A stretch of 64,000 nt of DNA. It comes from Escherichia phage MN04. The notes below the pieces were generated by a model. The model had not been told where the DNA came from. It was given only the letters and a program-made list of their open reading frames with translations, and did no database searches. The position numbers were made by a program, and so were the translations under genes. How positions within the stretch are numbered: position 1 is the first letter of the stretch; every line of letters starts with the position of its first letter. Shown here in pieces: positions 31,065-60,058 of this stretch. The stretch lies in sequence record MT129654.1. One strand, given 5' to 3'.

Positions 31065-31088
31065 AGGAACCTTCGGGTTCCTTTTTTC
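31065..31088 (+). terminator. intrinsic terminator after soc
   Basis: AGGAACCTTCGGGTTCCT hairpin plus T6. Confidence 0.7.
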
Positions 31089-31097
31089 GTTTTAGTA

Positions 31098-31127
31098 GTT
31101 TACTTTACGAGTAGGCCATGTTAAGAT
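31098..31127 (+). promoter_or_regulatory. early promoter, PeSL-like (weaker -10)
   Basis: GTTTAC, 18 nt, TAAGAT. Confidence 0.4.
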
Positions 31128-31153
31128 AGATGTATCTTATAGAGGAGAACACT

Positions 31154-31363
31154 ATGTTAAATCGTTGGATTAAACCAAATAAAACTTTGGATGAAATTAT
31201 CGCTAATCACGTATTGAAAAAGTACTTCTATACTCCTTGGTATACCGAAGTTATTGTCCATTCATTTATGATGCATGAAGACGGTTCTATCGAATTTAAT
31301 GCCGAAATCCGTCACGAGACTGATGATATTGATAAGGTTGAATTTAAACGAGGTTTCCTATGA
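31154..31363 (+). CDS. hypothetical protein (69 aa)
   Basis: AGAGGAGAA SD before ATG 31154, downstream of a PeSL-like promoter. Confidence 0.4.
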   Translation: MLNRWIKPNKTLDEIIANHVLKKYFYTPWYTEVIVHSFMMHEDGSIEFNAEIRHETDDIDKVEFKRGFL

Positions 31364-31677
31364 TTCGTTGGCTTAAGAATTTTTTCAAGACCACTCCTGG
31401 TGAAGGTGTAGTTCCTATCTCAGGTCCGAAGGAATATGTTTATGTAGGCGATGGTATGATGGAAGAAGTTACCCGTCAACCTGAAAAGGCGGGTAATGTG
31501 GATGCCAAGGCTATTCCTTTGAATTCTAAAAAGTTTAAAGAACATCTAGAAGCTAGTCGAACAAGCCATATTGATACCACTCCTATTATGGTTGCGGCTG
31601 CCGTTAGTTCTTGGACCGGCGATTCGTCTTATTCTGACTCAGGAAGCTGTGACTCATCGTCCGGCTCGTGTGATTAA
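31360..31677 (+). CDS. hypothetical protein (105 aa)
   Basis: ORF, overlapping start; Ser/Cys-rich C-terminus. Confidence 0.45.
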   Translation: MIRWLKNFFKTTPGEGVVPISGPKEYVYVGDGMMEEVTRQPEKAGNVDAKAIPLNSKKFKEHLEASRTSHIDTTPIMVAAAVSSWTGDSSYSDSGSCDSSSGSCD

Positions 31678-31877
31678 TGAAACCTTTATCATGGCTTAAA
31701 GATTGGCTAGACCGTCCTGGTGATTATCTTGATGACGGTTGGTTAGACCAAGCTAATGCAGAAATGAAACGTGAATCCGAGGAATGGATTCTTAAAGGCA
31801 TCCGTGACGAACGCGAAAAGAAATTAGAACGCGAGGCCCTTAGGATTATGCGTGATATCTATGGGGATAAATCATGA
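31677..31877 (+). CDS. hypothetical protein (66 aa)
   Basis: ORF, gene packing. Confidence 0.4.
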
Positions 31878-32027
31878 CTATTGAAGAAGCTGAAGCACGT
31901 ACTAAAGAGGCAATGGATTTGCTTCTTAAAATTGGTAGTAAAATGATGGAAGAAAACGAGAAATACATCCAGGAAAATAAAATTCCGGATGGTCCTTTAG
32001 TAGGTAAACTAAAAAGAGGAAAACATA

Positions 32028-32519
32028 ATGAAAGTCTATGAACTCGAATTCCATGTACGTGATTCATCAGGCCAAACGCATCCTTATGATGCTACGGCGT
32101 GTCTTATCTTTGTCGACAATGGTATGAATTCTATAACCCAGTTAGAAACACGATTAAAAGATATTAAGCTGCCAGAAAATATTCTGATGAAGGCTTACCA
32201 TAACAAAAATGTTGATGTCGCTGAGGGATGCCCTTTTAGTGTGGCTCAAGCCTTGCATATCAAAGGCTATCGTTACCCGGCGGACCCGTATGCCGAAGGA
32301 ACAATGGATATTTTCTATAAAGATAGAGATAGAATGGCTACTGAACGTCTTAAAGGTCGTACTTATCTGATTTCTACCGTCGAAGACCTGACGGAGGTAG
32401 AATGTCAGATTTGGAAACACTTTGATATTGGTTTGCGTTTTACCCCGACCGAAGAAGCTATTCGTGATGCTAAGTTACGAGCTCGTATGTATGGTTATGG
32501 TCCTATCGGTGGTTACTAA
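32028..32519 (+). CDS. hypothetical protein (163 aa); Mrh-like by position only
   Basis: ORF between soc and the mod genes. Confidence 0.4.
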
Positions 32520-32707
32520 TGGACTTATTTGATATGTTTGTCATTCCGGACCCTGAGCCTGAAACAACTCAGGAGCCGCCTGTTGACCTTGTCAACGAAC
32601 TTGATATGATTATACAGAAGCACGGTTTTAAGTTGCCTAAAGATGCCCTGGCTGACCTTGCTTCTTACTATCAAGACCCTCCACCATGGGCACCTTGGGT
32701 AAAATAA
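32519..32707 (+). CDS. hypothetical acidic protein (62 aa)
   Basis: ORF, overlapping start. Confidence 0.35.
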   Translation: MDLFDMFVIPDPEPETTQEPPVDLVNELDMIIQKHGFKLPKDALADLASYYQDPPPWAPWVK

Positions 32708-32940
32708 TGAATTGGCTAACTAATATACCTACATCGGCATTAGATATCGACCGTAAACAAGCCCGTAAGGAAATCGAGCAAAAAAATATTCAGGCAAAAG
32801 CTCCTAAGATTACGGCCAAGGCGCCGGAAATAAAAAGCTCTTATGAAACAAAAAGCTCTTATACTTCATATACCCAATCCCTAACAGGCCAAGCCGCTGA
32901 CATTGCGGTGTTTGGCGTCCCACTCGGTGTGTTTAAGTAG
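32707..32940 (+). CDS. hypothetical protein (77 aa)
   Basis: ATG overlapping the upstream stop. Confidence 0.4.
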   Translation: MNWLTNIPTSALDIDRKQARKEIEQKNIQAKAPKITAKAPEIKSSYETKSSYTSYTQSLTGQAADIAVFGVPLGVFK

Positions 32941-32997
32941 TTTACACCTCCTCCCTTCATGTTATAATGACCTCTAAATCACTGGAGGTCATATGAA
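32940..32997 (+). promoter_or_regulatory. early promoter plus SD-sequestering stem-loop before modB
   Basis: GTTTACA...TATAAT, then ATGACCTC / GAGGTCAT inverted repeat enclosing GGAGG and the ATG. Confidence 0.5.
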
Positions 32998-33562
32998 CAT
33001 CGAACAAAAATGTCTTTATCAAGACCGAATCAATTCCAAATTTTCAAAATCTGAACAAGCGTTGTTAGAGAAATGTCTGGATGCCAAAAAAGACCCTAAC
33101 TTCCATTACGACCTAGACAAACTGGTTCGTAAGCATGTCACTTCAGTGGTTCCGGTAGAGCTTTATCGTGGGATTACCACCAGAGAACTTGGGCAATTAG
33201 AGCTCCTTTCAGTAGGATGTCAATGGTCTCCTGGCCGGGTTACTTCTTTTAGTACACAATACTCTCAGGCTTGCCAGTTCGCAGGGTCATGGGAATATGG
33301 AACCAAAACCATTTTAAGTCTCAGGAATGCACCCTTCATTTTTGACTACTACAATCATGCTATCGACCTTGTTCTTGCAGGGAGTGCGGACGAACTTGAA
33401 ATAGATGAAACCCGTATTGACCTCTATGATATGGTCGAAACCGAATGTGAGTTCATGGTCTCTAGCCTATCACGATTTGAGATTGTTGAAATCGAAACTA
33501 TCAAAAGAGACCCATACGACATCGAGTACAAAATAATTCATTTAAAAATGTTGGATTTTTAG
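32993..33562 (+). CDS. modB: ADP-ribosyltransferase ModB-like
   Basis: R-S-E-type hints (LYRGIT, S-x-S, acidic E-x-E region); paralogous to the next gene; soc-dda locus as in T4. Confidence 0.5.
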   Translation: MNIEQKCLYQDRINSKFSKSEQALLEKCLDAKKDPNFHYDLDKLVRKHVTSVVPVELYRGITTRELGQLELLSVGCQWSPGRVTSFSTQYSQACQFAGSWEYGTKTILSLRNAPFIFDYYNHAIDLVLAGSADELEIDETRIDLYDMVETECEFMVSSLSRFEIVEIETIKRDPYDIEYKIIHLKMLDF

Positions 33563-33591
33563 TTTACAGGCAAGGAAGCTTGTGGTACTAT
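33562..33591 (+). promoter_or_regulatory. early promoter, PeSL-like
   Basis: GTTTAC, 18 nt, TACTAT. Confidence 0.5.
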
Positions 33592-33616
33592 CTTTCTATC
33601 AACTGAGGAGAATAAT

Positions 33617-34231
33617 ATGTTATATCCAAGCCATAAATTAGCAGAATTTATCAACAATGCCAAATGCGACGATTTCCGTGAGAATACCCAGATAGAAATT
33701 GATGAGGTGTATTCTGATTTAGAACAGAGCACGCTCTGGCAGTGTATGGAAAATAAACCTGATTCTATCCAGGAAACTCTGAACAAAATTATTCGTAAGA
33801 ACCTGACTTCTGTAGTGCCTGATAAGCTCTATCGCGGTATATCTAAAAAGACCCTGAAGTATCTAGAGTCCACAATGTGTGTGGGTGCGGTAATTGAATT
33901 CGACCGCGTGATGAGCTTCTCTAAAGACTTCAACGTAGCAAGGAATTTCGCATCTTATAACTTCTACGGCACATTTAATATCTTTTGTATTAATGATGCG
34001 CCATTTGTGTACAATTATCAGGAAGAAATCTTTAAAATGTTATGTGCTGCGCCCCCTGAAGAGTTCCCAGGCGCATTTCCTGAATCTACACGTGTAGCAA
34101 ACTTACAATTAATTAATGATGAAGATGAGATGATGTTCCCTGCGGGAACTACGCTGCGCGTAGACTCTATTGAGAGAAATCCTAAATGGAATAATTACAC
34201 CATTTGGAATCTTTCCGTTCTTTCTTACTGA
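33617..34231 (+). CDS. modA: ADP-ribosyltransferase ModA-like
   Basis: LTSVVPDKLYRGIS block shared with the upstream paralogue (HVTSVVPVELYRGIT); position matches T4 modA. Confidence 0.5.
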   Translation: MLYPSHKLAEFINNAKCDDFRENTQIEIDEVYSDLEQSTLWQCMENKPDSIQETLNKIIRKNLTSVVPDKLYRGISKKTLKYLESTMCVGAVIEFDRVMSFSKDFNVARNFASYNFYGTFNIFCINDAPFVYNYQEEIFKMLCAAPPEEFPGAFPESTRVANLQLINDEDEMMFPAGTTLRVDSIERNPKWNNYTIWNLSVLSY

Positions 34232-34300
34232 ACCACCCGGTTTAATTGAAAGGCAAAGTCCTTGATTCATTATACTGTTGAAAATTTAAAGCAAAAAAGT

Positions 34301-34329
34301 GTTTACTTTATTAAGCAACATGATACTAT
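34301..34329 (+). promoter_or_regulatory. early promoter, PeSL-like
   Basis: GTTTAC, 17 nt, TACTAT, then AGACCTATCAACT. Confidence 0.55.
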
Positions 34330-34368
34330 AGACCTATCAACTAATCGTCCGTAAGATGAGAAAATATC

Positions 34369-35118
34369 ATGCCTACTATTAAAACTAACGATGAATTTGA
34401 GTTAAAGGTTTACAACCGCCGCAAACACACCAAAGCTTCTGCTTATAAACGCGGTAAGGACTTCAATCTGTCCAGTAAGTATGTTCGTAGACTTCTCGAA
34501 CAAAAAGTGTGCGCTTATTCAGGCGAGTACTTTGATGAAAATTCAGTTAATGATAAGATTTCATTTGAACGTTTTAACAACGATATCGGTTATATTGAGG
34601 GTAATGTAATCCCAGTTAAAGTTAAGTATAACAGCTTACGTGCCGATTTGTCCCTTGATGAACTGAAACGTGCTCAGACTCGTTTAGCAGTTCGTATTTC
34701 AGGTAGTTCTAAAATGCCTAATAGTTTTAAAGTTACTCCTGATAACTATTATAAAATCCGTAAAATCGTTAAAAATATAAAAGATACCCAAAGAGGTCTT
34801 AAAAAACGTGAAAAACGTCTTAAAGACCTTATTAAATCGGGAGCTACTGATAAGACTCCTTCTGTTATCGCGGTTAAGGCCCGTATCCATGGTTCTAACG
34901 CTTCAATAGGTACTATGGAAAAAGGTCTTAAATCTTTAATTGGTGGGCCTGATTGGCGTGTTAAGTTTAAATTGTCTGAAGCAGAAACGCGTTACGATAT
35001 GTATGATAAAATTATTCAAGGTCTGGAGCGTTTAGAACACCTTTCTTTTATTGACAAATTGAAGTTGAAAAAAGGTCTTCCGCTGAATGCTTCAATTTTT
35101 TCACTGATTAGAGGTTAA
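34369..35118 (+). CDS. hypothetical protein (249 aa); Srd-like by size and position only
   Basis: ORF between modA and dda where T4 has srd; basic, coiled-coil-like C-terminal half. Confidence 0.4.
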   Translation: MPTIKTNDEFELKVYNRRKHTKASAYKRGKDFNLSSKYVRRLLEQKVCAYSGEYFDENSVNDKISFERFNNDIGYIEGNVIPVKVKYNSLRADLSLDELKRAQTRLAVRISGSSKMPNSFKVTPDNYYKIRKIVKNIKDTQRGLKKREKRLKDLIKSGATDKTPSVIAVKARIHGSNASIGTMEKGLKSLIGGPDWRVKFKLSEAETRYDMYDKIIQGLERLEHLSFIDKLKLKKGLPLNASIFSLIRG

Positions 35119-35119
35119 C

Positions 35120-35419
35120 GTGATGTACTATGCATACGTATTAGTTCACAAGGACAAAGATGGGTATGAAATTCCATTAGAAGATGCCGGTGAAGTGACT
35201 TTGTATTCGACAAAGATTGGAGCCGACACTGCTTTAGAGGCTTATGAAATCTCAACAAAAAGATATCTTCGGCTTGGACGCCTTGAAACAGTGTGCACGC
35301 CAAGAAAGTGGTGGTTTGATAAGTGGGAAACTAAAACGGTTTTTCCTACCAAAGAACGGGCCCGAGAATTAAAATTGATTTTAGACACTTTATATGTTAA
35401 GCGAGTAAAATTGGCATGA
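35120..35419 (+). CDS. hypothetical protein (99 aa)
   Basis: ORF immediately upstream of dda. Confidence 0.45.
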   Translation: MMYYAYVLVHKDKDGYEIPLEDAGEVTLYSTKIGADTALEAYEISTKRYLRLGRLETVCTPRKWWFDKWETKTVFPTKERARELKLILDTLYVKRVKLA

Positions 35420-36747
35420 TTACATTTGAAGACTTGAATATTGGGCAACGGACGGCCTTTAAAGAAATCATTGAAGCTATTAAACGACGTAAGGGCGAAT
35501 GGATTACATTGAATGGTCCTGCTGGTACAGGTAAAACGACCCTTACTAAATTTATCCTTGACCACTTAGTCAAGAATGGCGAACTCGGAGTTATTTTGAC
35601 CGCACCTACACACGCGGCCAAGAAGGTATTGTCGAAACTCGCAGGCCAAGAAGCATCGACAATCCACCGAATCTTAAAGATTAACCCGACTACATACGAA
35701 GACCAGGATATTTTTGAACAACGTGAAGCTCCTGACTTGAGCAAATGTAATGTTCTTGTGGTCGACGAAGGCTCAATGATTGACGGTAAGTTGTTTAAGA
35801 TTATCGAAGCTTCAGTTCCGCCATGGTGCACTGTACTGGGGATTGGCGACCGAGCTCAGTTACAACCTGTAGAACCAGGAAGTGATGGAAGTCCTCAGTT
35901 GTCTCCATTCTTTACCCATCCTAAAATTAAACAGCTACACCTTACTGAAGTAATGCGTAGTAATGCTCCTATCATTGAGGTTGCTACTGAAATCCGTAAT
36001 GGTGGATGGTTCCGAGATTGTATATTCGAAGGTCACGGTGTCCATGGTTTTAAATCTCAAACGGCTTTAAAAGATTTTATGATGAATTATTTTTCCATCG
36101 TAAAAGATGCTGATGCCTTGTTTGAGAACAGGATGTTTGCTTATACAAATAAATCAGTTGAAAAACTGAATAGCATTATTCGTAAAAAGCTTTATGAAAC
36201 CGATACGCCTTATATCAAGGGCGAAATCCTCGTGATGCAAGAGCCTTTTATTAAGGAACTTGAATACGACGGTAAGAAATTCTCTGAAACCATTTTTAAT
36301 AACGGCCAGATGGTTCGTATTTTAGATGTGAACCACACCTCATTGTTCTTGTCTGCCAAGGATGTAGGCACTCGCCAGATGATTAATTACTGGGACCTCC
36401 AGGTTGAATCTGTTGATGAGGATGACGAGTACTATGTAGAACACTTGAAAGTTATTGATGAGGCTTCAGTTGAGAAGTTCCATTATTTCTTGGCTAAGGT
36501 GGCTACTGAGTACAAGGCTATGCGTGGAACAGGTAAGAAACCTAAGTGGGCTGATTTCTGGAAAGCTAAGAGAATGTTCACTAAGGTTCGAGCTCTTCCG
36601 GTGAGCACTGTCCATAAATCACAGGGTCTTACTGTCCAAAACAGTTTCATCTATACTCCGTGCATGCACATGGCAGATGCCAATTTAGCTTCACAGCTGG
36701 CTTATGTTAGTATTACCCGTGCTCGCACTGATGCCTATTATGTTTGA
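35416..36747 (+). CDS. dda: Dda DNA helicase (SF1B)
   Basis: 443 aa; Walker A GPAGTGKTT and VLVVDEGSM; matches recalled T4 Dda. Confidence 0.9.
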   Translation: MITFEDLNIGQRTAFKEIIEAIKRRKGEWITLNGPAGTGKTTLTKFILDHLVKNGELGVILTAPTHAAKKVLSKLAGQEASTIHRILKINPTTYEDQDIFEQREAPDLSKCNVLVVDEGSMIDGKLFKIIEASVPPWCTVLGIGDRAQLQPVEPGSDGSPQLSPFFTHPKIKQLHLTEVMRSNAPIIEVATEIRNGGWFRDCIFEGHGVHGFKSQTALKDFMMNYFSIVKDADALFENRMFAYTNKSVEKLNSIIRKKLYETDTPYIKGEILVMQEPFIKELEYDGKKFSETIFNNGQMVRILDVNHTSLFLSAKDVGTRQMINYWDLQVESVDEDDEYYVEHLKVIDEASVEKFHYFLAKVATEYKAMRGTGKKPKWADFWKAKRMFTKVRALPVSTVHKSQGLTVQNSFIYTPCMHMADANLASQLAYVSITRARTDAYYV

Positions 36748-36754
36748 GGAAAAT

Positions 36755-36994
36755 ATGATTAAAGTAACTAAAGACCAATTTTATAAGTTGAAATTCGAGA
36801 CGGAATATATTATTAAGGTCAACCCAGACGATACAAATATCCGTGGCAAGGCTCATAAGGTCTTGCATTCACTTAAAGAGATTGAAAGTGATTTTATTGC
36901 AGTGCAAAAACTGATGGACGACAATATCTCTTCGGTTTATATTGAAGACTATACTGTTGGCCAAATCCGAGACCTTATGAGGTACGTTAAATGA
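36755..36994 (+). CDS. hypothetical protein (79 aa)
   Basis: GAGGAAAAT-ATG TIR; ORF between dda and dexA. Confidence 0.4.
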   Translation: MIKVTKDQFYKLKFETEYIIKVNPDDTNIRGKAHKVLHSLKEIESDFIAVQKLMDDNISSVYIEDYTVGQIRDLMRYVK

Positions 36995-37665
36995 AAGATA
37001 TAATTATTGACTTCGAAACCTTTGCCACTACCCAAAATGCAGCAGTTATCGACCTCGCCGTAATTGCTTATGACCCTAATCCAGAGGTAGTAGAATCGTT
37101 TGAAGAGCTTACTCAACGCGGTCTTCGTATTAAATTTGATTTGGCTTCTCAACGCGATAAACGTCTGTTCTCTAAAAGCACATTGCAGTGGTGGAAAGAA
37201 CAAGGACCTGAAGCACGTAAAAACCTGGCTCCGTCCGAAATTGATGTGAGTACTTCTATCGGCATTGGTAATTTCCTGGAATACTGCCGTAAAAACGAAG
37301 TGGACCAATGGAAATCCCAGATGTGGTGCCGCGGAATGTCCTTTGACTTTCCGATCTTAGTCGACCTTATTCGTGATGCTTATCGTTCTGAAGGTGTTCC
37401 TGAGAACGAAATCGATACAACTAAGTTGGAACCGGTTAAATTCTGGAACCAACGTGATATCCGCACGGCCATTGAAGCCTATTCACTGACGCGTGGATTA
37501 AGCATGTGCCCTCTGCCTAACGGAACATTGAATGGCTTTGTAGCCCATGACTCTATCCATGACTGTGCTAAGGATATCTTGATGCTGAAATATGCCCAAC
37601 GATATGCTTTAAACCTGGAAGATGTTCCTGAGAATCCAGACCCATTAAGTGTAAAAAATCGATAA
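36991..37665 (+). CDS. dexA: exonuclease A (DexA)
   Basis: 224 aa; IIIDFETFATTQNAAVIDLAVIAYDPNPEVV and CRGMSFDFPILVDLIRD match recalled T4 DexA. Confidence 0.8.
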   Translation: MKDIIIDFETFATTQNAAVIDLAVIAYDPNPEVVESFEELTQRGLRIKFDLASQRDKRLFSKSTLQWWKEQGPEARKNLAPSEIDVSTSIGIGNFLEYCRKNEVDQWKSQMWCRGMSFDFPILVDLIRDAYRSEGVPENEIDTTKLEPVKFWNQRDIRTAIEAYSLTRGLSMCPLPNGTLNGFVAHDSIHDCAKDILMLKYAQRYALNLEDVPENPDPLSVKNR

Positions 37666-37669
37666 AAGT

Positions 37670-37698
37670 GTTTACTTCTCCTCATGACATGATATTAT
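37670..37698 (+). promoter_or_regulatory. early promoter, PeSL-like with stem-loop
   Basis: GTTTAC, 17 nt, TATTAT; TCCTCATG / CATGAGGA inverted repeat. Confidence 0.5.
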
Positions 37699-37725
37699 CT
37701 ACCCTATCAACATGAGGAGAACAAA

Positions 37726-38229
37726 ATGAAAATTTATCGAGTTGAGTCATCGTTCAGTATCTTAGATGATGGAAACGCTATCACAATACGACGAGACCTC
37801 TGTACTCAAATGACTCCGTATAGAAGTACAATGGACTCATGGAGTGAAGGCTGGTTATTGGAAGTAGGTTTCGACAGACCCAATTTTAAGCATCGTCATA
37901 CCATCAATAAAAATATTCCACTACCAAGTCAAGATAAGTTGCTGGTAGAAAATTCTAATAAAACCATTAGAACTAAGTGGAAACGGCCTGATTATGAAGA
38001 CTGTGATGATTATATTCCAGGTTGGTTTGTTAACCTCTACCATTTTGCTTTTGCCAGTGAGTATGATATGATGCGCTGGTTCACTCGTGAAGAGCGTAAA
38101 GAATTATCTTCTAAAGGATTCTATCTTGCCGTTTACGAAATACCTGAAGATGAGGTAGTCATTGGTGACCGCCAAGTAATGTTCCGCAAGTCCCATGCTG
38201 AACTCGTAGATTTTATTGAAATGAGATAA
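37726..38229 (+). CDS. hypothetical protein (167 aa)
   Basis: GAGGAGAA SD behind a PeSL-like promoter. Confidence 0.5.
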   Translation: MKIYRVESSFSILDDGNAITIRRDLCTQMTPYRSTMDSWSEGWLLEVGFDRPNFKHRHTINKNIPLPSQDKLLVENSNKTIRTKWKRPDYEDCDDYIPGWFVNLYHFAFASEYDMMRWFTREERKELSSKGFYLAVYEIPEDEVVIGDRQVMFRKSHAELVDFIEMR

Positions 38230-38231
38230 TT

Positions 38232-38783
38232 ATGAAATTTAATTATAATCCCAAATACACACCGAACCCGGCGGCCAAATTGATTGATTTTGATGTTTTA
38301 AGCACTTATGCAGCCCCTATTGAACCATTAGAAATTAAGGAAACCACTATGACTACTCAGACTATCGAAATCGGTAAAACCTACAAACTGGTTGAACCTG
38401 AAATTAAAACTAAGGCCTTGATTTCTGGTTATAAAACTCTGACTGATGTTTTTGGCGAAGGCGAATTTATTGTTGAAGAATTCGCTAAAAGTGAGTGGTT
38501 TGACAAATCTTACGTCATCCACGGTCGCCGGTTAGATAATAACAAAATAGAGAAAAACCTGGTTTATGAAGATGAATTTGGGCTTTTCCGTGAAGTCGGA
38601 GTCGAACAAGACCCTACAGACCTGTTGTGTGCTGCTGTGGCTATCCGTCGTCCTTTTGATAATCCTATCTGTGGTTGGGTAACAGACCAGTGGATTGAAG
38701 ATGGTGTTGAACTCCTGAACGTTGTACATGCTGGTGATTTTAGCGTAGTACCTCGTAGTGCAGTGGTTAATGTATTGAATTAA
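38232..38783 (+). CDS. hypothetical protein (183 aa), tandem paralogue A
   Basis: C-terminal W(V/I)TDQW(I/V)E(D/G)GV(E/K)L..V...G.F.VVP shared with the 38857 ORF. Confidence 0.5.
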   Translation: MKFNYNPKYTPNPAAKLIDFDVLSTYAAPIEPLEIKETTMTTQTIEIGKTYKLVEPEIKTKALISGYKTLTDVFGEGEFIVEEFAKSEWFDKSYVIHGRRLDNNKIEKNLVYEDEFGLFREVGVEQDPTDLLCAAVAIRRPFDNPICGWVTDQWIEDGVELLNVVHAGDFSVVPRSAVVNVLN

Positions 38784-38785
38784 TA

Positions 38786-38814
38786 GTTTACTTTATCGAG
38801 AGCCATGTTATAAT
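38786..38814 (+). promoter_or_regulatory. early promoter, PeSL-like
   Basis: GTTTAC, 17 nt, TATAAT; -10 in the loop of GAGAGCCAT/ATGGCTCT. Confidence 0.55.
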
Positions 38815-38856
38815 GGCTCTTATGGATTATAATCCTTTAACCAAGAGAGAAAAATT

Positions 38857-39408: not shown

Positions 39409-39569
39409 AGTTTAAAAAACAGTATACAATACGGTAGGGTAGTGATAAGATTACCCTATCAAAACAAATGAGTGAAATGGAGAATAAAAATGTTTGCACC
39501 TTATATTATGATTACAGTTATCGTTATCTGTCTGTATCTTTTAATTAAAGCTTGTTAAGGAGATTTAAA

Positions 39570-40287: not shown

Positions 40288-40288
40288 T

Positions 40289-40465: not shown

Positions 40466-40471
40466 GAAATT

Positions 40472-40732: not shown

Positions 40733-40750
40733 GGGCTTCGGCCCTTTTAT
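40733..40750 (+). terminator. intrinsic terminator candidate
   Basis: GGGCTTCGGCCC hairpin plus a short T-run. Confidence 0.45.
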
Positions 40751-48645: not shown

Positions 48646-48659
48646 TTGAGGAAAATATT

Positions 48660-49531: not shown

Positions 49532-49608
49532 TGAGCAATTTCCATAACGAACATGTGATGCAGTTCTATCGTAACAATCTTAAAACTAAAGGCGTCTTCG
49601 GACGCTAA
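49531..49608 (+). CDS. stp: Stp peptide (anticodon-nuclease activator / restriction inhibitor)
   Basis: 25 codons, [25 protein letters not shown], essentially identical to the recalled 26-residue T4 Stp; start overlaps the ndd stop. Confidence 0.8.
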
Positions 49609-49618
49609 TGAGGAAAAT

Positions 49619-49917: not shown

Positions 49918-51297
49918 ATGGCTGATGTAATTGATACCCTTTTTAAACAATCCTTAGATGTTTACGATGATGCTTTTACTCGTCGTGACTTAAAAAGCAT
50001 TATCGACAATGAAGCGCTGGCTTATGCAATGTATACTGTCGAAAACCGCGCCATTCCAAATATGATTGATGGCTTTAAACCTGTACAACGTTTTGTAGTT
50101 GCTCGTTGTCTTGATATGGCTCGTGGTAATAAAGAAAAATTCCACAAACTAGCTTCTATTGCAGGTGGTGTAGCCGACCTTGGATATCACCACGGTGAAG
50201 GTTCTGCTCAAGAAGCAGGTGCTCTGATGGCTAACACATGGAACAACAACTTCCCACTGTTGGATGGCCAAGGCAACTTTGGTTCTCGATTAGTTCAAAA
50301 GGCTGCAGCCTCTCGTTATATTTTTGCACGAATTGGAACTAATTTCGCAAAGGTTTATAAGGATACAGAATATGCTCCGGTTCATGCGGATGTCGAACAT
50401 AAGCCACCAGCTTTTTATCTGCCTATTATTCCTACTGTTCTTCTTAATGGTATTTCCGGTATTGCGACTGGTTATGCAACTAATATTCTTCCTCATAGTT
50501 TTGATTCTGTTAAGAAAGCTGTATTGCAGGTTCTTCAAGAAAAACGCGTAACCAAGCCTAAGGTGGCTTATCCGGAATTCCGTGGCGATGTGGTTGAGAT
50601 TGAACCAGGTAGTTATGAACTACGAGGCACGTATAAGTTCACATCTCGAACCCAAATGCATATCACAGAAATCCCGTACAAATACGACCGTGAAACGTAC
50701 GTGGCCAAGGTACTGGACCCTTTAGAAGACAAAGGGTATATCACGTATGATGACGACTGTGACGAGAATGGTTTCGGCTTCAAGGTTAAGATTCGTAAAG
50801 AATATGAATTGCCTACTGAAGAAAATAAGAAGCATGAAAAAATCATGAAGGACTTCGGGTTAATCGAACGTCGTTCGCAAAACCTGACCGTCATTAATGA
50901 GAAAGGTAAACTTAAGGTTTACGAAGATGTAGTTGAACTGATTCGTGATTTCGTTGAGGTCCGTAAGACCTTTGTACAAAAACGTATTGATGGTAAAATC
51001 ATCGAAACCGAAGAAGCTTTCAAACTGGCATTGGCTAAAGCTACATTCATTAAAGATGTTATTGATGGTGTGGTGGTTATCCAAGGTAAGACCCGTAAAG
51101 TTTTAACCGAAGAATTGGCCAGCAATAAAGTCTACGGTGAATACGCTGATAAACTCGTAGCAATGAATATTTTCCATATCACGTCCGATGAAGCTAAGAA
51201 ACTGGCTTTGGAAGCCAAGGCTAAGAAAGAAGAGCACCAATACTGGAAAACCACTGATGTTGTAACTGAGTATGTTAAAGATTTGGAGGCTCTATGA
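49918..51297 (+). CDS. 52: DNA topoisomerase II medium subunit gp52 (GyrA-like)
   Basis: 459 aa; ENRAIPNMIDGFKPVQRF (GyrA-type segment). Confidence 0.9.
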   Translation: MADVIDTLFKQSLDVYDDAFTRRDLKSIIDNEALAYAMYTVENRAIPNMIDGFKPVQRFVVARCLDMARGNKEKFHKLASIAGGVADLGYHHGEGSAQEAGALMANTWNNNFPLLDGQGNFGSRLVQKAAASRYIFARIGTNFAKVYKDTEYAPVHADVEHKPPAFYLPIIPTVLLNGISGIATGYATNILPHSFDSVKKAVLQVLQEKRVTKPKVAYPEFRGDVVEIEPGSYELRGTYKFTSRTQMHITEIPYKYDRETYVAKVLDPLEDKGYITYDDDCDENGFGFKVKIRKEYELPTEENKKHEKIMKDFGLIERRSQNLTVINEKGKLKVYEDVVELIRDFVEVRKTFVQKRIDGKIIETEEAFKLALAKATFIKDVIDGVVVIQGKTRKVLTEELASNKVYGEYADKLVAMNIFHITSDEAKKLALEAKAKKEEHQYWKTTDVVTEYVKDLEAL

Positions 51298-51398
51298 GCC
51301 TTGGAGTCGAGTTCTTGTTACTCTGTATCTTTGCTGTTATCCTAGGCCTGGCGACAGGCTTAGCTATAGGTTTAATAGCAGCCCACTTTAAAAAGTAA
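51294..51398 (+). CDS. small hydrophobic peptide (34 aa)
   Basis: ATG overlapping the gene 52 stop; single predicted TM helix; followed by a terminator. Confidence 0.3.
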   Translation: MSLGVEFLLLCIFAVILGLATGLAIGLIAAHFKK

Positions 51399-51420
51399 GG
51401 AACCTTCGGGTTCCTTTTTG
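51398..51420 (+). terminator. intrinsic terminator after gene 52
   Basis: AGGAACCTTCGGGTTCCT hairpin plus T5 (same sequence as at 31065). Confidence 0.65.
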
Positions 51421-51438
51421 GGTTTAGTGCAAAAAAGT

Positions 51439-51467
51439 GTTTACATCTGCTTTAAACATGATACTAT
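51439..51467 (+). promoter_or_regulatory. early promoter, PeSL-like (duplicate copy 1)
   Basis: GTTTAC, 17 nt, TACTAT, then AGACCTATCAAATAAATGAACTGAAAC. Confidence 0.55.
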
Positions 51468-51515
51468 AGACCTATCAAATAAATGAACTGAAACAAACAA
51501 CCCGGAGATACAAAA

Positions 51516-51743
51516 ATGAAATTTAAAATCGAAAACGAAATCGTTAAAGCTAAAAATGCTCTGACTGCTAACAAACTGGTTGTAGATGGTATTGAATATG
51601 ATATCTGTGGAGTTCGTGAAGAAAAACCCGGTGTTCTGACTTTCTTCACAATGATTTTTAAATTTAAAGGTGACACAGAATTCAAACAGTTTGATTTTGC
51701 CCCTGAAGACGAAATCGAAGTTCGTAATCTGAACATTAAGTAA
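51516..51743 (+). CDS. hypothetical protein (75 aa), flanked by duplicated PeSL-like elements
   Basis: ORF with GGAG SD between two near-identical ~60-bp cassettes. Confidence 0.45.
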   Translation: MKFKIENEIVKAKNALTANKLVVDGIEYDICGVREEKPGVLTFFTMIFKFKGDTEFKQFDFAPEDEIEVRNLNIK

Positions 51744-51782
51744 GTACTTTATTAGAGCTCTTGAAAAAGAGCTCAAAATAAA

Positions 51783-51811
51783 GTTTACTTCTGCTTTAAA
51801 CATGATACTAT
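51783..51811 (+). promoter_or_regulatory. early promoter, PeSL-like (duplicate copy 2)
   Basis: Near-identical to the 51439 copy over about 60 bp. Confidence 0.55.
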
Positions 51812-51848
51812 AGACCTATCAAATAAATGAACTGAAACGGAGATTAAA

Positions 51849-52484: not shown

Positions 52485-52498
52485 CTGAGGAAATTATT

Positions 52499-52828
52499 AT
52501 GAACAAGCTGAATATTGTTAATGAACTTCGTCGTTGTGCAGAACCTACTCAAGAAGGTTGGGATATTTGGTACCATGGCGCTTATCTCGGCACTATTGTT
52601 AAGATTAAAGCAGGTAAATACTTAATCATCCGTGGTGGTTCTGAAGCTTCTATGGGAATTCGTAAGAACTTTATGGCAGCCATCAGCACCTTTGTTCCAG
52701 CTGCTTATGAAGTCTATAAAGCCGACTACAAAGAATACCAGGAATCACAACCGGTTATTCGTTCAATTGGTGTTAATAAAGCTCAACAGAAAACTTTATG
52801 GCAACGTGTTAAAGGATGGTTCAAATGA
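52499..52828 (+). CDS. hypothetical protein (109 aa)
   Basis: CTGAGGAAATTATT-ATG TIR. Confidence 0.45.
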   Translation: MNKLNIVNELRRCAEPTQEGWDIWYHGAYLGTIVKIKAGKYLIIRGGSEASMGIRKNFMAAISTFVPAAYEVYKADYKEYQESQPVIRSIGVNKAQQKTLWQRVKGWFK

Positions 52829-53163
52829 TTCCGATGGAACTTAACTGGGACGGCGAAGGTCATTCCCTTAAATTGATTGAAGAACAGCGTAATGATTGGG
52901 ACGAGCGTGTAGCTTTAGTAAACGGTATTAAGAAAATTTACCAACTCAACCTTCATATTGACAATGTTCATCTTGAATTTGGTATGCAGTTATTGCGGTT
53001 TCTTGAGATTATTTTTATAGAAAAGGTAAACATAACTTCGCATGGTGCTGGCCAATCGGTTGTTATTAAATTATCATCCTATTATAAAGGTGATTTAATT
53101 GAAACAGCCACCAAAATTCAAGAATTTGCTAAAGATAACGGCCATAAGGTGATTTTCAAATGA
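52816..53163 (+). CDS. hypothetical protein (115 aa)
   Basis: ORF, overlapping start. Confidence 0.45.
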
Positions 53164-53648
53164 ATCCATTAAAAGGTAAAGAATTATCCTTTAAAGACCG
53201 TATGGCTTTATTAGATAAAGCTCTTTCTCGTGAAACACCTGAAAGCTTAGCAGCTAAATTACGAGCCTATGGTGATTACACTGAATATTCGGAAGAGGAT
53301 GTTTTGGAAGAGGTTCCTGAAATCTGTTGGCAGATTGCTCATTGGAACAACAATGAAAAATATCAGCGACGAATTGTGTGTGCAGCCAATCGCTTTAAGT
53401 TAAAAGACGGCGGGACTTTGGTTATTCCTGGCGCGCGTCATTATTCAAAAGATATGGCGGAAGTGCTTGACCAAGTAAGTGATAAACTTGTGTCAGAGCA
53501 TGTTTGCGGTGATGACCAAGGATTTATCGACCAATACTCAAATTATTGGACTCGCGAAGAAGCAATGATTATTGCAACATATGCTAATCAAGTTCGTATT
53601 GAACGTGGTGGTAGTGAAAAAGAACTTTACTCTGAGGACCTTTACTAA
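53160..53648 (+). CDS. hypothetical protein (162 aa)
   Basis: ORF, overlapping start. Confidence 0.45.
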
Positions 53649-53929
53649 TGAATCTTAAACAACTCCAGATTGATGCAATCGAAGCCCATATCAACCATAT
53701 TAAACGTCTGAATGTTATGGTGGAAGATAATTGGGGAACTTATGTCAACCAACCGGCTTGGGATGCATTAGATCATGAATATATAAAGAATATTAGTTCT
53801 AAGACAATTCATGGGAATATGGAAGGGTTGAAGCCGTTCCTACGTGATATGTATATTGCAACTAATAAAGAAATTATCAGTTCTCTTGAATATCAATTAA
53901 GGAAATTACGTGAACAATCTTGTAGCTAA
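53648..53929 (+). CDS. hypothetical protein (93 aa); Arn-like by size and position only
   Basis: ORF between motA and asiA where T4 has arn; no sequence confirmation. Confidence 0.3.
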   Translation: MNLKQLQIDAIEAHINHIKRLNVMVEDNWGTYVNQPAWDALDHEYIKNISSKTIHGNMEGLKPFLRDMYIATNKEIISSLEYQLRKLREQSCS

Positions 53930-54232
53930 GCACGATTTCAATAAGGCTTCGGTCCATAAGGACAAGAAGAAAAATTTTAAAGAGTCCAAGCGTAAGCAGA
54001 AACATAAGGGTAAAGGGTATGAGTCATAACTTAGAGAATACCGTAACAGGTATGCGTACGCGTGAGCAGGAGTGCTTTGAGGAATTCCTAGGAGCTGATT
54101 TTAAGTTCCAGGAACCTATTGAAGAAATGTATCAGGAATATGTTAAAAAGAACGAAGAACATGTTTACAATCCATAAGGATATGTTATTATAGCCTTATC
54201 AGATAATGTCGTACTGAATTGAAGAGAATATT

Positions 54233-54508
54233 ATGACTAAAATTGAAATCGTTTCCGAAATTGCTACTATTGTTTCCATTTTGATTAAAACGGATTGTGA
54301 AGACATCATGCAACGCCGTGATGAGTTTATTGCCTTTTTGAATGAGTTGGGTATTCGTAATGAACATGGAAAGGAACTTAACGGTCTATCTTTTAATAAA
54401 CTCTTTAAGTCTTTAACTGAAGATGAACGTGATACTCTTATTGAGCAATTTAATGAAGGGTATGAAGATATACACCGTTATCTAATGATGTATACCTCCA
54501 ATTTTTAA
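54233..54508 (+). CDS. asiA: anti-sigma70 factor AsiA
   Basis: 91 aa; IVSILIK...FIAFLNELGI...LIEQFNEGYEDIHRYLMMYT matches recalled T4 AsiA. Confidence 0.8.
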   Translation: MTKIEIVSEIATIVSILIKTDCEDIMQRRDEFIAFLNELGIRNEHGKELNGLSFNKLFKSLTEDERDTLIEQFNEGYEDIHRYLMMYTSNF

Positions 54509-55158
54509 CGAGTTCGACCTAATGTCCTCCCGGCCTGACCACACATAGACGAAAGTCTAGGAAATCCTAAATCCGGTTTGATGTCATACCAGTATAATGA
54601 TATCGAACCGGCATAGATGTTATCCAAATTAAAAAACGGACATGAAAACATATACGTGAAATGGGTTTTCTTCTTTGTAGGAAGGAACACAGTTTCTGTA
54701 CTTGATTCAAAATAATTCCCGTTAACTCCCGCCATATACTCCACTGACGTTTTGTCAATCGGAAATCCTCCCGTATTTTTTGCGTCTACCGTTTCCGGTA
54801 ATTTACCCTCATAAGCAACCATGTCCACAAAATAATTCATGTTGGTTGGTCTAAAAGAATATATTGCTGTGAAGTCTGCGCCTGAAGAAGAATGCACTAT
54901 TCGGAGCTGCTCGATAGCCGCAATTTTAAATCTATTGTCCTGGTCTTGTCTAATCATTTCAGTATAAGAGGCATAAGTTGTCTCTTTATAAAAGTTTAGA
55001 ATATATTCGCCTTTATACCAAACCAGTGCCATAAAGAACAATAATATTACGACTAGGACCCGGGAAAAAACTACTTTCCCGGAAGAAGTATCTTTAAAAA
55101 TTCTATCAAGAAGTCCAAAAAGTAGGTCTGATAATGAAAATCCTACTTTTGGTTCCAT
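54505..55158 (-). CDS. t: holin T
   Basis: 217 aa; DLLFGLLDRIFKD, single N-terminal TM, YSFRP...YFVD..AYEGKLP, CPFFNLDNIYAG match recalled T4 T; late promoter TATAAATA just upstream. Confidence 0.9.
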   Translation of the reverse strand: MEPKVGFSLSDLLFGLLDRIFKDTSSGKVVFSRVLVVILLFFMALVWYKGEYILNFYKETTYASYTEMIRQDQDNRFKIAAIEQLRIVHSSSGADFTAIYSFRPTNMNYFVDMVAYEGKLPETVDAKNTGGFPIDKTSVEYMAGVNGNYFESSTETVFLPTKKKTHFTYMFSCPFFNLDNIYAGSISLYWYDIKPDLGFPRLSSMCGQAGRTLGRTR

Positions 55159-55176
55159 ACTTTTCTCCTTTAAAGA

Positions 55177-55184
55177 TATTTATA
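55177..55184 (-). promoter_or_regulatory. late promoter (TATAAATA) for holin t
   Basis: Reverse complement of TATTTATA gives exact TATAAATA on the - strand, just upstream of the t SD. Confidence 0.6.
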
Positions 55185-55200
55185 ATTTAATACTTTCGTA

Positions 55201-55974
55201 TTATAACCAAGAGCCGTAGATAGTGCCTGTAGCGCCCCATGATGGGGCGGAACCGAATACTGCTCTACCAGGAGCACCACCACCCGACCTGGATAAGTTT
55301 TTACCCCATCCATCTCCGCCCCAACCTCCAGCATCACCGCCATTGCCTCCGCCGAATTGGGAAGTGTAACCGGCGCCACCTGGACCATCATAACTAGCAT
55401 TGCCACCTGGCCAATTAACACCACCGCCGCCGAGACCAAATGGTCTGCCGCCACCGCCACCTGCTGTAGAATTTGCAGGCCAACTATTCTGTAATGATAC
55501 GGCACCGCCGCCACCACCACCGGAGGCTATCACACCATAATTCCAAATGCGAAGTCGCCCACCAATATCATTTTGGATTACGTCACCACCATTAGTGCCT
55601 GGGCTTCCATTTACGCTACCATTACCACCTCGGCCCCACATATGAACACCACCATGAATATTCAAAGTAACATATTCGTTAGGGGTATCACCGTACATAA
55701 AGAACAACGGAACATCTTTAGTATATGATACTAAGTTGCCTGTGATATTAAACACTATAGGAGCACCGCCGGCTTCAAAACAACGGTCTCTAAACCATTG
55801 CCCGTTAAAGTTATGGTCGGCCCCAAGCGTGTGAATTACTTCAACAGATCGACCTATCATATTACTCATCCAAAAAGGAACACCCATTCTTAATCTTACG
55901 GCTGCTCCTGCCATCCAAGGGTCTCCAGTTTGTACCCTTGCAGACCATCCTACCCACGGTCCTTCAACTGCCAT
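55201..55974 (-). CDS. 38: long tail fibre adhesin gp38 (T2-type, glycine-rich)
   Basis: 257 aa from the ATG behind GGAGG (the track's TTG start rejected); poly-Gly motifs ([25 protein letters not shown]) between conserved N- and C-terminal parts. Confidence 0.8.
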
Positions 55975-56005
55975 ATAAACCTCCAAGGGGCCTAAGCCCC
56001 TCTTA

Positions 56006-59000
56006 TTATTTTAACAATGATTTAACTAAAGCTTTAAGTTCTTCAATCTCTGATTTCAATTCTGTTATTTCGGCAGTATGCTCATTGATTGCAGCTGTAT
56101 TTAAACCAATTACACCGTTATAGTTCAAACGAAGTAAAGCTTCACTATTAGGGTCACCTTCAACCAATTCAGGTAAAATAGCTTGAACTTCTTGGGCAAT
56201 TAAACCAGCATTAGGTTCCCATTTCTGATTACCTTCCTCATCTAGGCCTCGCTTCTGCATATAAGTGTAACCGTTAATTTTAGAAAGCTTCTGAGAAGCA
56301 TTTTCAAATTTAACAAGGTCTTTTTTAACGCGAATATCAGAACGAACATAAACATCACGGACATATGTAGAATAGGCATCACTTTGTTGGATTAAATGAC
56401 CAAAAGAAATAATAGCCCTTCCTGTTTCGGTCCACAAAGCACCGGTGGTATCCCAAAGACCTTGATGGATATGGTAAGAGCTAGACCAAGATGCAATATG
56501 CATACCATTGGCAACCATATTGATTCGGCCATCACCGCCGTGTGATAATCCTGTGTCATTATCACCAATAGCAATACTAGGAGAGCCTAATCCGTTAACA
56601 GTTCCAACACCAATGGCAGGAGTCTGGACTAAAGTCGGGGCGTAAAATAAACCGCTAGAGTGGAATTCGAAAATACCTACAGGACCGTCGCCACGCTCGG
56701 CATTACCTACTCGAATTATCGCTTGTCCCCATGCTTGTGGAGTACGACGCATGCCTAATTCAACAGAAGTAGTATAACCCTGACCACTAATTACAGATCG
56801 GCCTTTAATAATGGGATAATAACTGTCTTCACCCACACTACCAAACTCAAGGAAATAAGGTGCTTCTAAGCCCCATTGGTCACCCCATGCACCAGATTTA
56901 TGTGCAATCCAGTTGGAACCGTTCATATAAATACGGTCTCGGTTTACATTGAATACTGAAGCACCTTGTGGAGATAAAACAACCTCACCATTATGGGTGA
57001 TATTAATACCACCTTGGGATTGGAAGCTCCAGAAGGCTAAACCGTTATCAGCACCACCATTACCTACATACCAGTTATCAACACCACCTTTTTTACCCTT
57101 AACATAACCAGCTTCATCTGCCGGATAATCAATAACAATAGCGTCTGAATTGGTTTTAAGAGTTAAGCGGCCTGTCATTGTGTCCCCGCCTTTACCAACA
57201 CGAGTATTCACCGCTGCGTCAAGGTTAGTAGCACCGCTATACTTGTTCCAAATAGAACCTGCAATATTACCATCAGTATTCATGAAAGCTGTACCGGCAT
57301 ATAAGCGGTTCTGAGCCATGAAGTTACCTTCTTTGGTAAAGCGCCAATATTTTAATCCTGTAGCATCACCATCACCAAGCAAATCACCTTGAGCAACAAT
57401 TCGATATTCACTTGTAGCTCGGTCCATACCTTGAGTAACAGTTACGTTCGAATCAATATTTTTCTGCTTAGTAATAGGGTAAAATGCTTGAGTTGCAGCA
57501 TCGAGCGTTTGATATACCAGAGCTTTAGTCGTGTTCTGGTTGGCATAAGATGCACCGTTACTATTAGGGAATTCTAATGCACCATTACCCCTAAAATAAA
57601 CCTGGTCTGCTTCTAAGTTAGGGATTTTAACCCGACCGGTGTCTAACATAATACTTAATGGGCGTAATGGACCCAATCCGCCACTTTCACCAGCATTAAC
57701 ATTGGTTGGGATAATATGTAGCTGGTCTTCTGAATTTCGAAAAATAACACCATACTTATCATTCCAAATACGAAGACCACTAGCAGCGCGGACTTTAATT
57801 TCATTGGAAACATATAGATTGCGTTTTAAAGATGTATCTTGACTGACAGACAATCCTTCGACGATGTTCATCGTGCCGTTTAAATAAGATTCGACTTTAC
57901 CTGCCGTATTTCGTTGAATATAGTGCATCCAGCCGGTAGCATCAGATGTTTCCAATACGTTTTTACGAGAACCACCTACCGTATTAAAAGTGTCACCCCA
58001 ACCTTTGAGCTCTATATTATCAACTGAACTATATCCTGAGGTACTTCCTTTAAAAAGCACAGTGGAAGCGTTACCACGACCGTCAATATTAACCGAACCA
58101 CCACGGACTTCAACGTTACCAGGAGTAACCAACAACCCACCATCAGTGTTAACGTTTGTTACACCTTTACCACGGAAATAATGGTGGTATTTACCACTCT
58201 GATGATAACCTAAAAGAGTCTGCCCATCACCAAAGCCGTTTTTATCATTAGTAGTATTAACAATAACTAATGGATAGTTTTGAGCTGTAGGAAGAATTAA
58301 ATCAGAACCGTTGGTTGAATAACCCGCAACTAACTGTTTAAGGCTTGTAACTTCAGTCGGAGTTGTAAGTAAAGTATAAGCTCCATTATTAACTGTATGG
58401 AACTGGCCGTCTTGTTTCCATTTCAAACCTGTGTTATTGTCACCAAGAGCAATTGAAGCCGTCCCTAATTCAGAATATCCTTTAGGGCCACCTGGAAGAC
58501 CTACAGAAATAGAATGACCGGCTTTCAATCCACCTGCCCAGTTAAACGACAAAATATAAGTGTCTAAGCCATCTCCGGAATACCAGGCTATTCCGTCATT
58601 AACATTAACTTCGTGGAAAATACCTGCTCCTACAGCATTTCGCATAACACGGAGGTGGTTAATAGCCGTTTCGCTTTCTGCCAATGGAGTGTTATTTGAT
58701 AATGAAGATATATCGTAATCGCCGGCGGCTTTACCGTCGGTAATAACTTTATTAGTATAAATTATTGGAGATTTTACCGATGTTCCACCAGAAATAGATG
58801 GAGCATAAAATAAACCGTCACCGTTGAATGCAAAAATATTAGATGTTGAATTAGTGTAATCCTGAACACGAACATTTAAGATTTGCTTGGTATCCCCAGC
58901 ACGGTTTTGAGAATAAATTATGCCTCTTTCACGCGCATCAGCCAAATCCTGGAATCGAACGTGGGTAGTTCCTGCACCCCGTACAAGAACTTCACCGTTA

Positions 59001-59320
59001 TCTGTCATTAGGCGAGATTTTGCTGTGATATCACCATTTGCTGTTATACTTCCGGATGTCGTATAACTACCTGTTTGGGTAAAAGCACCCTTCAGGGCAT
59101 AATCGCCGGTCTGGTTGTAGTTACCGTTATGAATAACGTTTCCGTCGATATTACCACCTTTAGCAAAGCCAAGGTCGATAATCGCTCCAGTGTCATCTTT
59201 GGTAAATAACAAACGGTCTTTTAAGTTAATAGCCAGCTCGCCTTCAGCCAACTGCGCTGGCGTAGGACGTACACCAGCTACTTTACTTCTTTTAAATTGT
59301 ATCTGTTTTAAAGTAGCCAT
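56006..59320 (-). CDS. 37: long tail fibre distal subunit gp37
   Basis: 1104 aa; [36 protein letters not shown] matches the recalled T4 gp37 N-terminus; C-terminal intramolecular-chaperone-like domain. Confidence 0.9.
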
Positions 59321-59328
59321 AATGCCTC

Positions 59329-59976
59329 TTAATAATAACCAAAATCTTGAATAGAATCTTTTTGAACAATCTGGTCAAAGCGAGGAACGTGTCCTGCACC
59401 AGAGGCCGGATTCCGTGAAATAAAGTTAGGAGCCGCTAGCACTCCATCCATTATTTGCATGTCAGTATTATTTATTTGGACCTGTTTTGCGTTATCTACT
59501 AATGACAATCCAACTTGAGCTTTAGTAGGGGTGTTGCCTGGGCTGAATACGCGGCCTGATTCATCATATACTTGACGGAATAATGAATCACCCATTACGG
59601 TAAGACGTTTAGCCCCAACTGTTGTATTTGGGTCAAATATCATAAACGGAGTACCATCTTCCGTTTCATATCCAAAAGCACCTTTAATACGGAAAGAAGC
59701 TGTGAACGGAGCCCCGCCGGTTCTTGCTCCTAATTTAATACCATATCCATTAGTATCATTAAAGGTCAAACCTTTTTCAAAATACACGTTGTTCTTATAA
59801 TTACCGCCGTTAGCTTTTGAAACGAAATCGTTATCAACTGCTTGAGGTTTATTATACTCGGTGTAAACTTTATATGTTTTGTAAAGAAGGTCATTTGATA
59901 CAGGCGTTAAGGGGAAATTACCTTGGTGCCATAATACCGAACCTCCTGCTGTAGAACCTAATTTTAAATCTGCCAT
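59329..59976 (-). CDS. 36: long tail fibre subunit gp36
   Basis: 215 aa; MADLKLGSTAGGSVLWHQGNFPL...HVPRFDQIVQKDSIQDFGYY matches recalled T4 gp36 termini. Confidence 0.85.
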   Translation of the reverse strand: MADLKLGSTAGGSVLWHQGNFPLTPVSNDLLYKTYKVYTEYNKPQAVDNDFVSKANGGNYKNNVYFEKGLTFNDTNGYGIKLGARTGGAPFTASFRIKGAFGYETEDGTPFMIFDPNTTVGAKRLTVMGDSLFRQVYDESGRVFSPGNTPTKAQVGLSLVDNAKQVQINNTDMQIMDGVLAAPNFISRNPASGAGHVPRFDQIVQKDSIQDFGYY

Positions 59977-60033
59977 TTTGAGTTTCCTTTGGGAGTTATA
60001 GCCTTTTATATATATTTATGGCTGTAGAAAACG

Positions 60034-60058
60034 AAAAAAAGGAACCCGAAGGTTCCTT
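60034..60058 (-). terminator. intrinsic terminator after gene 35 (- strand)
   Basis: Reverse complement reads AAGGAACCTTCGGGTTCCTTTTTTT. Confidence 0.65.

Follow-up and report, generated by a model that had tools for sequence, protein, structure and literature searches.

How one and the same hairpin comes to stand at three unrelated gene junctions, on both strands of a single phage genome, is the question raised by a 64,000 nt stretch of Escherichia phage MN04 (sequence record MT129654.1), referred to here as the window. The window belongs to a JS98-like Dhakavirus, a T4-like coliphage, and is ~97 % identical to JS98 across the 3 kb compared. A 23-mer, AAGGAACCTTCGGGTTCCTTTTT, occurs in it after soc (copy 1, site 1) and just downstream of gene 52 (copy 2, site 2) on the + strand, and after gene 35 (copy 3, site 3) on the - strand. 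An earlier reading of the letters alone, hereafter the original prediction, took the three copies for identical terminators and suggested that they form a portable regulatory cassette. The analysis reported here favours a simpler answer, with a probability of roughly 0.8: the three copies are ordinary Rho-independent terminators, each old, inherited vertically and resident at its own junction, and they are identical because the design space of such hairpins is small. This answer is carried by the sequence, predicted fold and position of the hairpins, by their orthology and compensatory change among relatives, by the independence of the three sites, and by recurrence of the motif in unrelated phages.

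Number and anatomy of the hairpins

An exact search confirmed that the hairpin sequence is used three times, on both strands, and found exactly three copies of AAGGAACCTTCGGGTTCCTTTTT in the window (Table 1). The original prediction had located the copies, with end positions off by a trivial 1-2 nt, and had placed them correctly after soc and gene 35; the placement after gene 52 needs amending, as copy 2 overlaps the stop codon of a 34 aa open reading frame (ORF) that lies between. No further copy with up to 3 mismatches is present in the window, and 100 dinucleotide-preserving shuffles gave 0 matches. The count also holds for a complete genome: JS98, the closest annotated relative, carries the same three copies and no others within 4 mismatches, and when up to 5 mismatches are allowed only one unrelated AAGGGACC hairpin, 5 mismatches away, is added. 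In an alignment the three sites are identical over 24 nt, that is, the 23-mer and one upstream base (the T of a TAA stop codon), with no flank homology among them beyond these 24 nt.

Each copy forms a perfect 8 bp stem with four GC pairs and a TTCG loop closed by a C-G pair. The stem arms, AAGGAACC and GGTTCCTT (the 3' arm also written GGUUCCUU), are common to all three copies, and a run of 5-7 T residues lies directly 3' of the stem, followed by CGTTTT or GGGTTT. The predicted fold of the 23-mer alone has a free energy of -11 kcal/mol. All three copies scored as terminator-like in the sense orientation in a consensus scan. Each lies at the end of a gene and in its coding direction, either overlapping the TAA stop codon or coming after it; copy 1 starts 4 nt past the soc stop. 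An Rfam gathering-score scan of the whole 64 kb window matched no family. Anatomy, position and the comparative evidence given below lend good support to the reading of the three copies as terminators on the strands originally proposed. As such they would halt RNA polymerase, insulating neighbouring units, and would probably also protect mRNA 3' ends.

Copies 2 and 3 additionally pass the terminator-like filter in the antisense direction (51397-51416 and 60039-60058), with a CGAA loop and a T-rich tail, because their upstream flank is A-rich. These two copies could therefore act weakly in both directions.

The C(UUCG)G hairpin class of T4 reportedly goes back to Tuerk et al. in 1988. The UUCG tetraloop was first found in T4 mRNA (PMC4371310), and T4 terminators combine a GC-rich stem, a 4 nt loop and a poly(U) stretch (PMC2988022). 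The hairpins of the window resemble the C(UUCG)G intrinsic terminators of T4, a type characteristic of T4-like phages, in their GC-containing stem, C-G closure, UUCG loop, U-run and intercistronic position after a stop codon. T4's own soc and 35/36 junctions bear such hairpins as well, and the exact stem sequence is the only difference, the T4 stems being AAGGACTCC at soc and AGGGACCC/GGTTCCCT at 35/36.

Bacterial repetitive extragenic palindromic (REP) sequences and bacterial interspersed mosaic elements (BIMEs) are dispersed short palindromes that recur intergenically. The hairpins share with them a short palindrome recurring intergenically on both strands, but differ in having just three copies per genome, a U-run, sense orientation after stop codons and an orthologously fixed rather than dispersed location; nor is a transposase associated with them, although no search aimed at one was made. 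The hairpin was also considered as an element acting at the DNA level, as a dispersed repeat of the REP kind and as a binding site for a protein; each reading was rejected on account of the sense orientation after stops, the U-runs and the free compensatory change of the stems.

Separate histories of the three sites

At the soc junction, a hairpin is found at the same place in 17 of 17 related loci from IMG/VR and in T4, with differing stems: AAGGAACC in the JS98 sub-clade, AGGGAACC/GGTTCCCT and AAGGAATCC/GGATTCCTT in other relatives, and AAGGACTCC/GGAGTCCTT in T4. One more distant relative has a GGGAACC stem with a different loop. The stem is 8 bp long in the JS98 type and 9 bp long in T4 and other relatives, the difference being a paired indel, and RNAalifold places double-sided compensatory changes at 4 of the 8 pairs. 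In the relatives as in T4, a promoter and the mrh.2-like ORF come after the hairpin without exception, and mosaicism at this site is limited to the promoter segment.

The 35/36 junction gives a similar picture. Copy 3 sits on the gene 35 stop and is followed by a late-promoter-like motif and gene 36; a hairpin, a T-run and TATAAATA are present in 19 of 19 loci and in T4. At least six different stems occupy this position, namely AAGGAACC, AAGGACC, AAGGGACC (with a TTAT loop), GGGAGAC, AGGAGCC (with a TACG loop) and AGGGAGCC/GGTTCCCT. Nolan et al. in 2006 compared six T4-like genomes and predicted a terminator between genes 35 and 36 in every one of them (PMC1524935). Copy 3 occupies exactly that position, ahead of the gene 36 late promoter, and shows no substantive difference from the conserved terminator, of which it is the JS98-type sequence version. 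At site 2, the AAGGAACC hairpin is present in 6 of 6 Dhakavirus genomes (in one of them with a TTAG loop), and T4 carries a different hairpin at this junction, just upstream of motA.

Several relatives hold fewer copies of the exact motif, with diverged flanks, a pattern that tells against the cassette proposal of the original prediction. Contig 2974735671 retains the exact motif at site 2 only, having AAGGAATCC at site 1, AAGGAACC at site 2 and AAGGGACC (TTAT loop) at site 3. In contig 2706795356 the exact motif is missing from two sites, site 1 having AAGGAATCC and site 2 a TTAG loop, while site 3 bears AAGGAACC. For contig 2706795394, from which site 2 was not recovered, the stems are AGGGAACC (site 1) and AAGGACC (site 3). 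No co-variation of stem states between the three sites was seen across the relatives, and concerted evolution is unsupported there.

Since they are orthologous in relatives and in T4, with no joint change among sites, the soc and 35/36 hairpins are long-resident features of their junctions that evolve independently. Selection appears to act on structure, because the stems change by compensatory mutation while the loop and the pairing are kept.

Coincidence, recombination or a portable cassette

The other clean terminator hairpins of the window and of JS98 follow one template, consisting of an A-run, GG, one to three variable pairs and C-TTCG-G; AAGGAGC, AAGGGC, AAAGGGAC, AAAAGGCC and AAAAGGGC are examples of what precedes the TTCG loop. 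The JS98 genome contains 11 perfect TTCG-loop terminator hairpins with 9 distinct stems, and AAGGAACC is the one stem used more than once. In the window CTTCGG occurs 40 times, about twice the 19.6 expected from shuffles. A degenerate scan of IMG/VR with AAGGNNCCTTCGGGNNCCTTTTT returned sequences of which, among the matches listed, 119 of 120 can pair; the AA/TT variant with the AAGGAACC stem makes up 5 of the 120 matches listed (~4 %) and is no commoner than its siblings. The exact 23-mer matched IMG/VR 79 times, in 32 flank contexts without common sequence, and JS98-like phages account for only 3 of those 32 contexts, plus one paralogous locus. With 32 unrelated contexts and a variant that is not over-represented, the 23-mer appears to be an ordinary point of a widely used terminator template, one reached independently many times.

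The site states seen across relatives are just one to two steps apart. Within so narrow a template stems would drift by compensatory substitutions and indels, and in the JS98 sub-clade the three sites would happen upon the same point of a small template space. Coincidence within this small neighbourhood, by convergence or by drift, is the most likely cause of the identity as judged from these comparisons.

Several points weigh against this reading. Three hairpins of the AAGGNNCC template would all coincide with a probability of ~0.011. The chance of some identical triple among 11-16 terminators was estimated with a crude model of effective stem types, at 0.29-0.66 for 20 types, 0.06-0.17 for 50 and 0.016-0.05 for 100; the triple identity is thus not trivially likely by chance. 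Additionally, Morganella phage MP1 (vB_MmoM_MP1, NC_031020), of another T4-like genus, carries the identical 23-mer at three non-orthologous sites (L019, L038 and L059), and at the one copy examined the depositors' annotation gives a predicted rho-independent terminator followed by a promoter. As non-orthologous sites these also speak for convergence. Their triple use hints at a preference for, or a spread of, this particular stem. A further point comes from a junction outside the window, 3' of nrdC.11, where JS98 has AAAAGGCC-TTCG and contig 2706795356 has AAGGAACC-TTCG; the two differ by 8 coordinated changes between homologous flanks, and the downstream spacer and promoter are ~85 % identical to the site 2 block across ~93 nt. 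On the strength of this coordinated swap and of the promoter homology to site 2, recombination between paralogous terminator-promoter modules is probably able to exchange one hairpin for another, and may have had a part in the identity. Finally, that the hairpins terminate transcription in infected cells, and why they are identical, are both inferred.

The nrdC.11 junction is a fourth terminator-promoter module, lying in the nrdC.10/nrdC.11 hyperplastic region (JS98 NC_010105, ~49599-49618, - strand; L047, 8422-8444; also L258, L264 and L268). The relatives differ in its hairpin, which can be AAAAGGCC, AAGGAACC or AGGAACC, and in the ORFs on either side.

The MP1 triple and the nrdC.11 swap bear most directly on an unlikely alternative, in which the three hairpins were homogenised by ectopic gene conversion or recombination, between paralogous terminators or between whole terminator-promoter modules; they would then be identical by descent while still serving as terminators. 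Besides the 8 coordinated changes next to a site-2-like promoter block at nrdC.11 and the conditional chance of ~1 % for the triple, it can draw on the paired indel that separates the 8 bp from the 9 bp soc stems, and on the statement that short patches of homology suffice for T4-type recombination (PMC2839356). However, past the 24 nt neither site 1 nor site 3 has flanks homologous to those of site 2 or to the other's, the stem states vary from genome to genome with no joint change among the three sites, and the observed states lie so close together in a tiny space that coincidence is easy. It is conceivable, if doubtful, that besides compensatory upkeep T4-like terminator hairpins are occasionally overwritten by ectopic recombination between paralogous modules of the promoter-early stem-loop (PeSL) type. 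If true, regulatory punctuation would evolve in concert, and the identical hairpins of the window, the MP1 triple and the nrdC.11 change between AAAAGGCC and AAGGAACC would be traces of this.

The original prediction likened its portable cassette to PeSLs. A PeSL is an intergenic composite of a terminator stem-loop, an AT-rich stretch, a sigma-70-like early promoter, a Shine-Dalgarno (SD) sequence and an ATG; PeSLs are concentrated in hyperplastic regions, where ORFs are inserted, deleted or replaced by recombination, and excision of mini-circles has been shown experimentally (PMC2839356, PMC4122927). Promoters of the T4/PST group follow the consensus TTTACW-N17-TAYWAT, and the stem often reads AGNA-loop-TCNT (PMC2839356, PMC4122927). 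Copies 1 and 2 share this layout, with a stem-loop, an AT-rich spacer, a TTTACW-N16/17-TAnnAT early promoter within 15-25 nt, an SD sequence and an ATG (PMC4122927). Their AGGA...TCCT stem fits AGNA-loop-TCNT, and copy 2 has AAAAAAGTG upstream of TTTACA-N16-TACTAT. Together with their downstream early promoters, copies 1 and 2 thus appear to be instances of the known PeSL composite.

Site 2 also shows the expected plasticity. It holds three different ORFs or none: one ORF stands between the two promoter copies in the window, a different one in JS98 and one other relative, and yet another in a third relative, while two relatives have no ORF there and a single promoter copy straight before motA. 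An ORF indel or replacement point between 65 nt promoter repeats is, by analogy, the geometry proposed for mini-circle excision. The repetition typical of PeSLs is present too, in that the promoter block forms a family within the window, and relatives carry the site 2 hairpin, spacer and -35 again 3' of nrdC.11; at this second hyperplastic locus of the same genomes the hairpin, spacer and promoter return as a block of ~50-90 nt.

The portable-cassette proposal thus stands in part, for the PeSL layout of copies 1 and 2 and the plasticity of site 2. It fails for copy 3, which has no early promoter; this copy is followed by a late promoter (CATAAATA) among conserved tail-fibre genes, and is not a PeSL. 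Even at site 2, the variable ORF is bracketed by copies of the promoter block, the right one with an AGAGCTC stem-loop ahead of it, and not by the AAGGAACC hairpin. Nor does the identity of the hairpins itself bear witness to a cassette, since 24 nt are shared without any flanks, the identical 23-mer occurs in 32 unrelated contexts, and the soc and 35/36 hairpins are orthologous. That the hairpin is, or marks, a PeSL-type cassette inserted at three unrelated junctions is therefore quite improbable. Recent insertion at soc and 35/36 is contradicted by the orthology of these hairpins among T4-like coliphages, T4 itself among them. Conserved core or near-core genes lie beside both sites, the conserved genes 35 and 36 flanking site 3. 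For these two sites orthology already largely refutes the cassette.

Least credible is a specific target for a factor acting in trans, be it an RNA-binding protein, a nuclease or a DNA-binding helper of recombination, with selection on the sequence itself: the exact identity of three copies here and of three at other sites in MP1 would fit it, as would the speculation of Arbiol et al. that a protein might bind PeSL stem-loops (PMC2839356), but stems at orthologous sites vary freely by compensation with loop and pairing kept, the AA/TT variant is not over-represented within the template among the matches listed, and no Rfam family was matched in the window.

Transcription-unit boundaries and neighbouring features

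With the hairpins read as ordinary terminators, each would mark the end of one transcription unit, to be followed by the promoter of the next. The first boundary would separate soc from an early promoter and the mrh.2-like ORF. The second would separate gene 52 and the small ORF at the motA.1 position from an early promoter, the variable ORF and motA, and the third would divide genes 34-35 from a late promoter and genes 36-37. By analogy with T4 soc, copy 1 would close a short unit that begins at the soc late promoter. Coordinates of the features are collected in Table 1.

Table 1. Features at the three hairpin sites, in window coordinates
Feature	Position	Strand	Remarks
T4-type late promoter TATAAATA	30787-30794	+	Exact match, 32 nt before soc ATG; putative role by analogy with T4 soc
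soc, small outer capsid protein, 77 aa	30826-31059	+	100 % identity to JS98 product annotated soc (NC_010105)
Predicted terminator hairpin, copy 1	31064-31086	+	Stem 31064-31071/31076-31083, loop TTCG, then T6-CGTTTT
Predicted early promoter TTTACT-N17-TAAGAT (sigma-70/T4-type) for mrh.2-like ORF	31099-31127	+	12 nt past copy 1; same arrangement in T4
34 aa hydrophobic (membrane) ORF MSLGVEFLLLCIFAVILGLATGLAIGLIAAHFKK	51294-51398	+	Position of T4 motA.1
Predicted terminator hairpin, copy 2	51397-51419	+	Predicted fold; kept in six Dhakavirus genomes
65 nt direct repeat, left copy	51430-51494	+	AT-rich spacer, early promoter TTTACA-N16-TACTAT (51440-51467), start of 5' untranslated region
Variable 75 aa ORF	51516-51743	+	Between the promoter repeats
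Second stem-loop, AGAGCTC-TTGAAAA-GAGCTCT	51754-51774	+	Upstream of right promoter copy; no T-run; kept in L102, L104, L107 and L109
65 nt direct repeat, right copy (predicted promoter for motA)	51774-51838	+	94 % identical to left copy
motA, 211 aa	51849-52484	+	JS98 annotation
Gene 36, tail fibre hinge connector	59329-59976	-	JS98 annotation
Late-promoter-like CATAAATA upstream of gene 36	60013-60020	-	TATAAATA in T4 and other relatives
Predicted terminator hairpin, copy 3	60036-60058	-	Overlaps TAA of gene 35; orthologues in 19 T4-like loci and T4
Gene 35	60057-61178	-	JS98 annotation

The 34 aa ORF at site 2 is tightly packed between its neighbours, its ATG overlapping the gene 52 stop and its TAA overlapping hairpin copy 2. 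It is kept in six Dhakavirus genomes and is without annotation in the JS98 RefSeq record.

The early promoters of the window form a family of at least six members on the + strand (26594, 27551, 34302, 48083, 51440 and 51784), which are alike well past the hexamers (GTTTACW...CATGATACTATAGACCTATCAAC). The 14-mer TATAGACCTATCAA occurs five times exactly and seven times with up to 2 mismatches, versus 0.8 expected by chance at that tolerance. Additionally, an AAGGAGC-TTCG terminator at 26560-26577 (+) is followed by a spacer and -35 (GTTTTAAGGGTTTACTT) that are the same as the post-soc spacer in IME281-type genomes (L083, L095). The GTTTTAAGGGTTTACTT spacer type would thus seem to be a second small subfamily of terminator-promoter modules.

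The kind of element, its positions (the soc hairpin in the T4 sequence and the 35/36 terminator) and its mechanism are already known, and the finding has little import beyond annotation. It does carry a caution: because the sequence space of short UUCG terminators is so small, exact identity between them, even in unrelated phages, says little about shared origin or mobility. For a JS98-like phage, three transcription-unit boundaries would now be placed, downstream of soc, of gene 52 plus the small ORF that trails it, and of genes 34-35. Dhakavirus examples would also be added to the PeSL layout, including a clear ORF-swapping junction upstream of motA.

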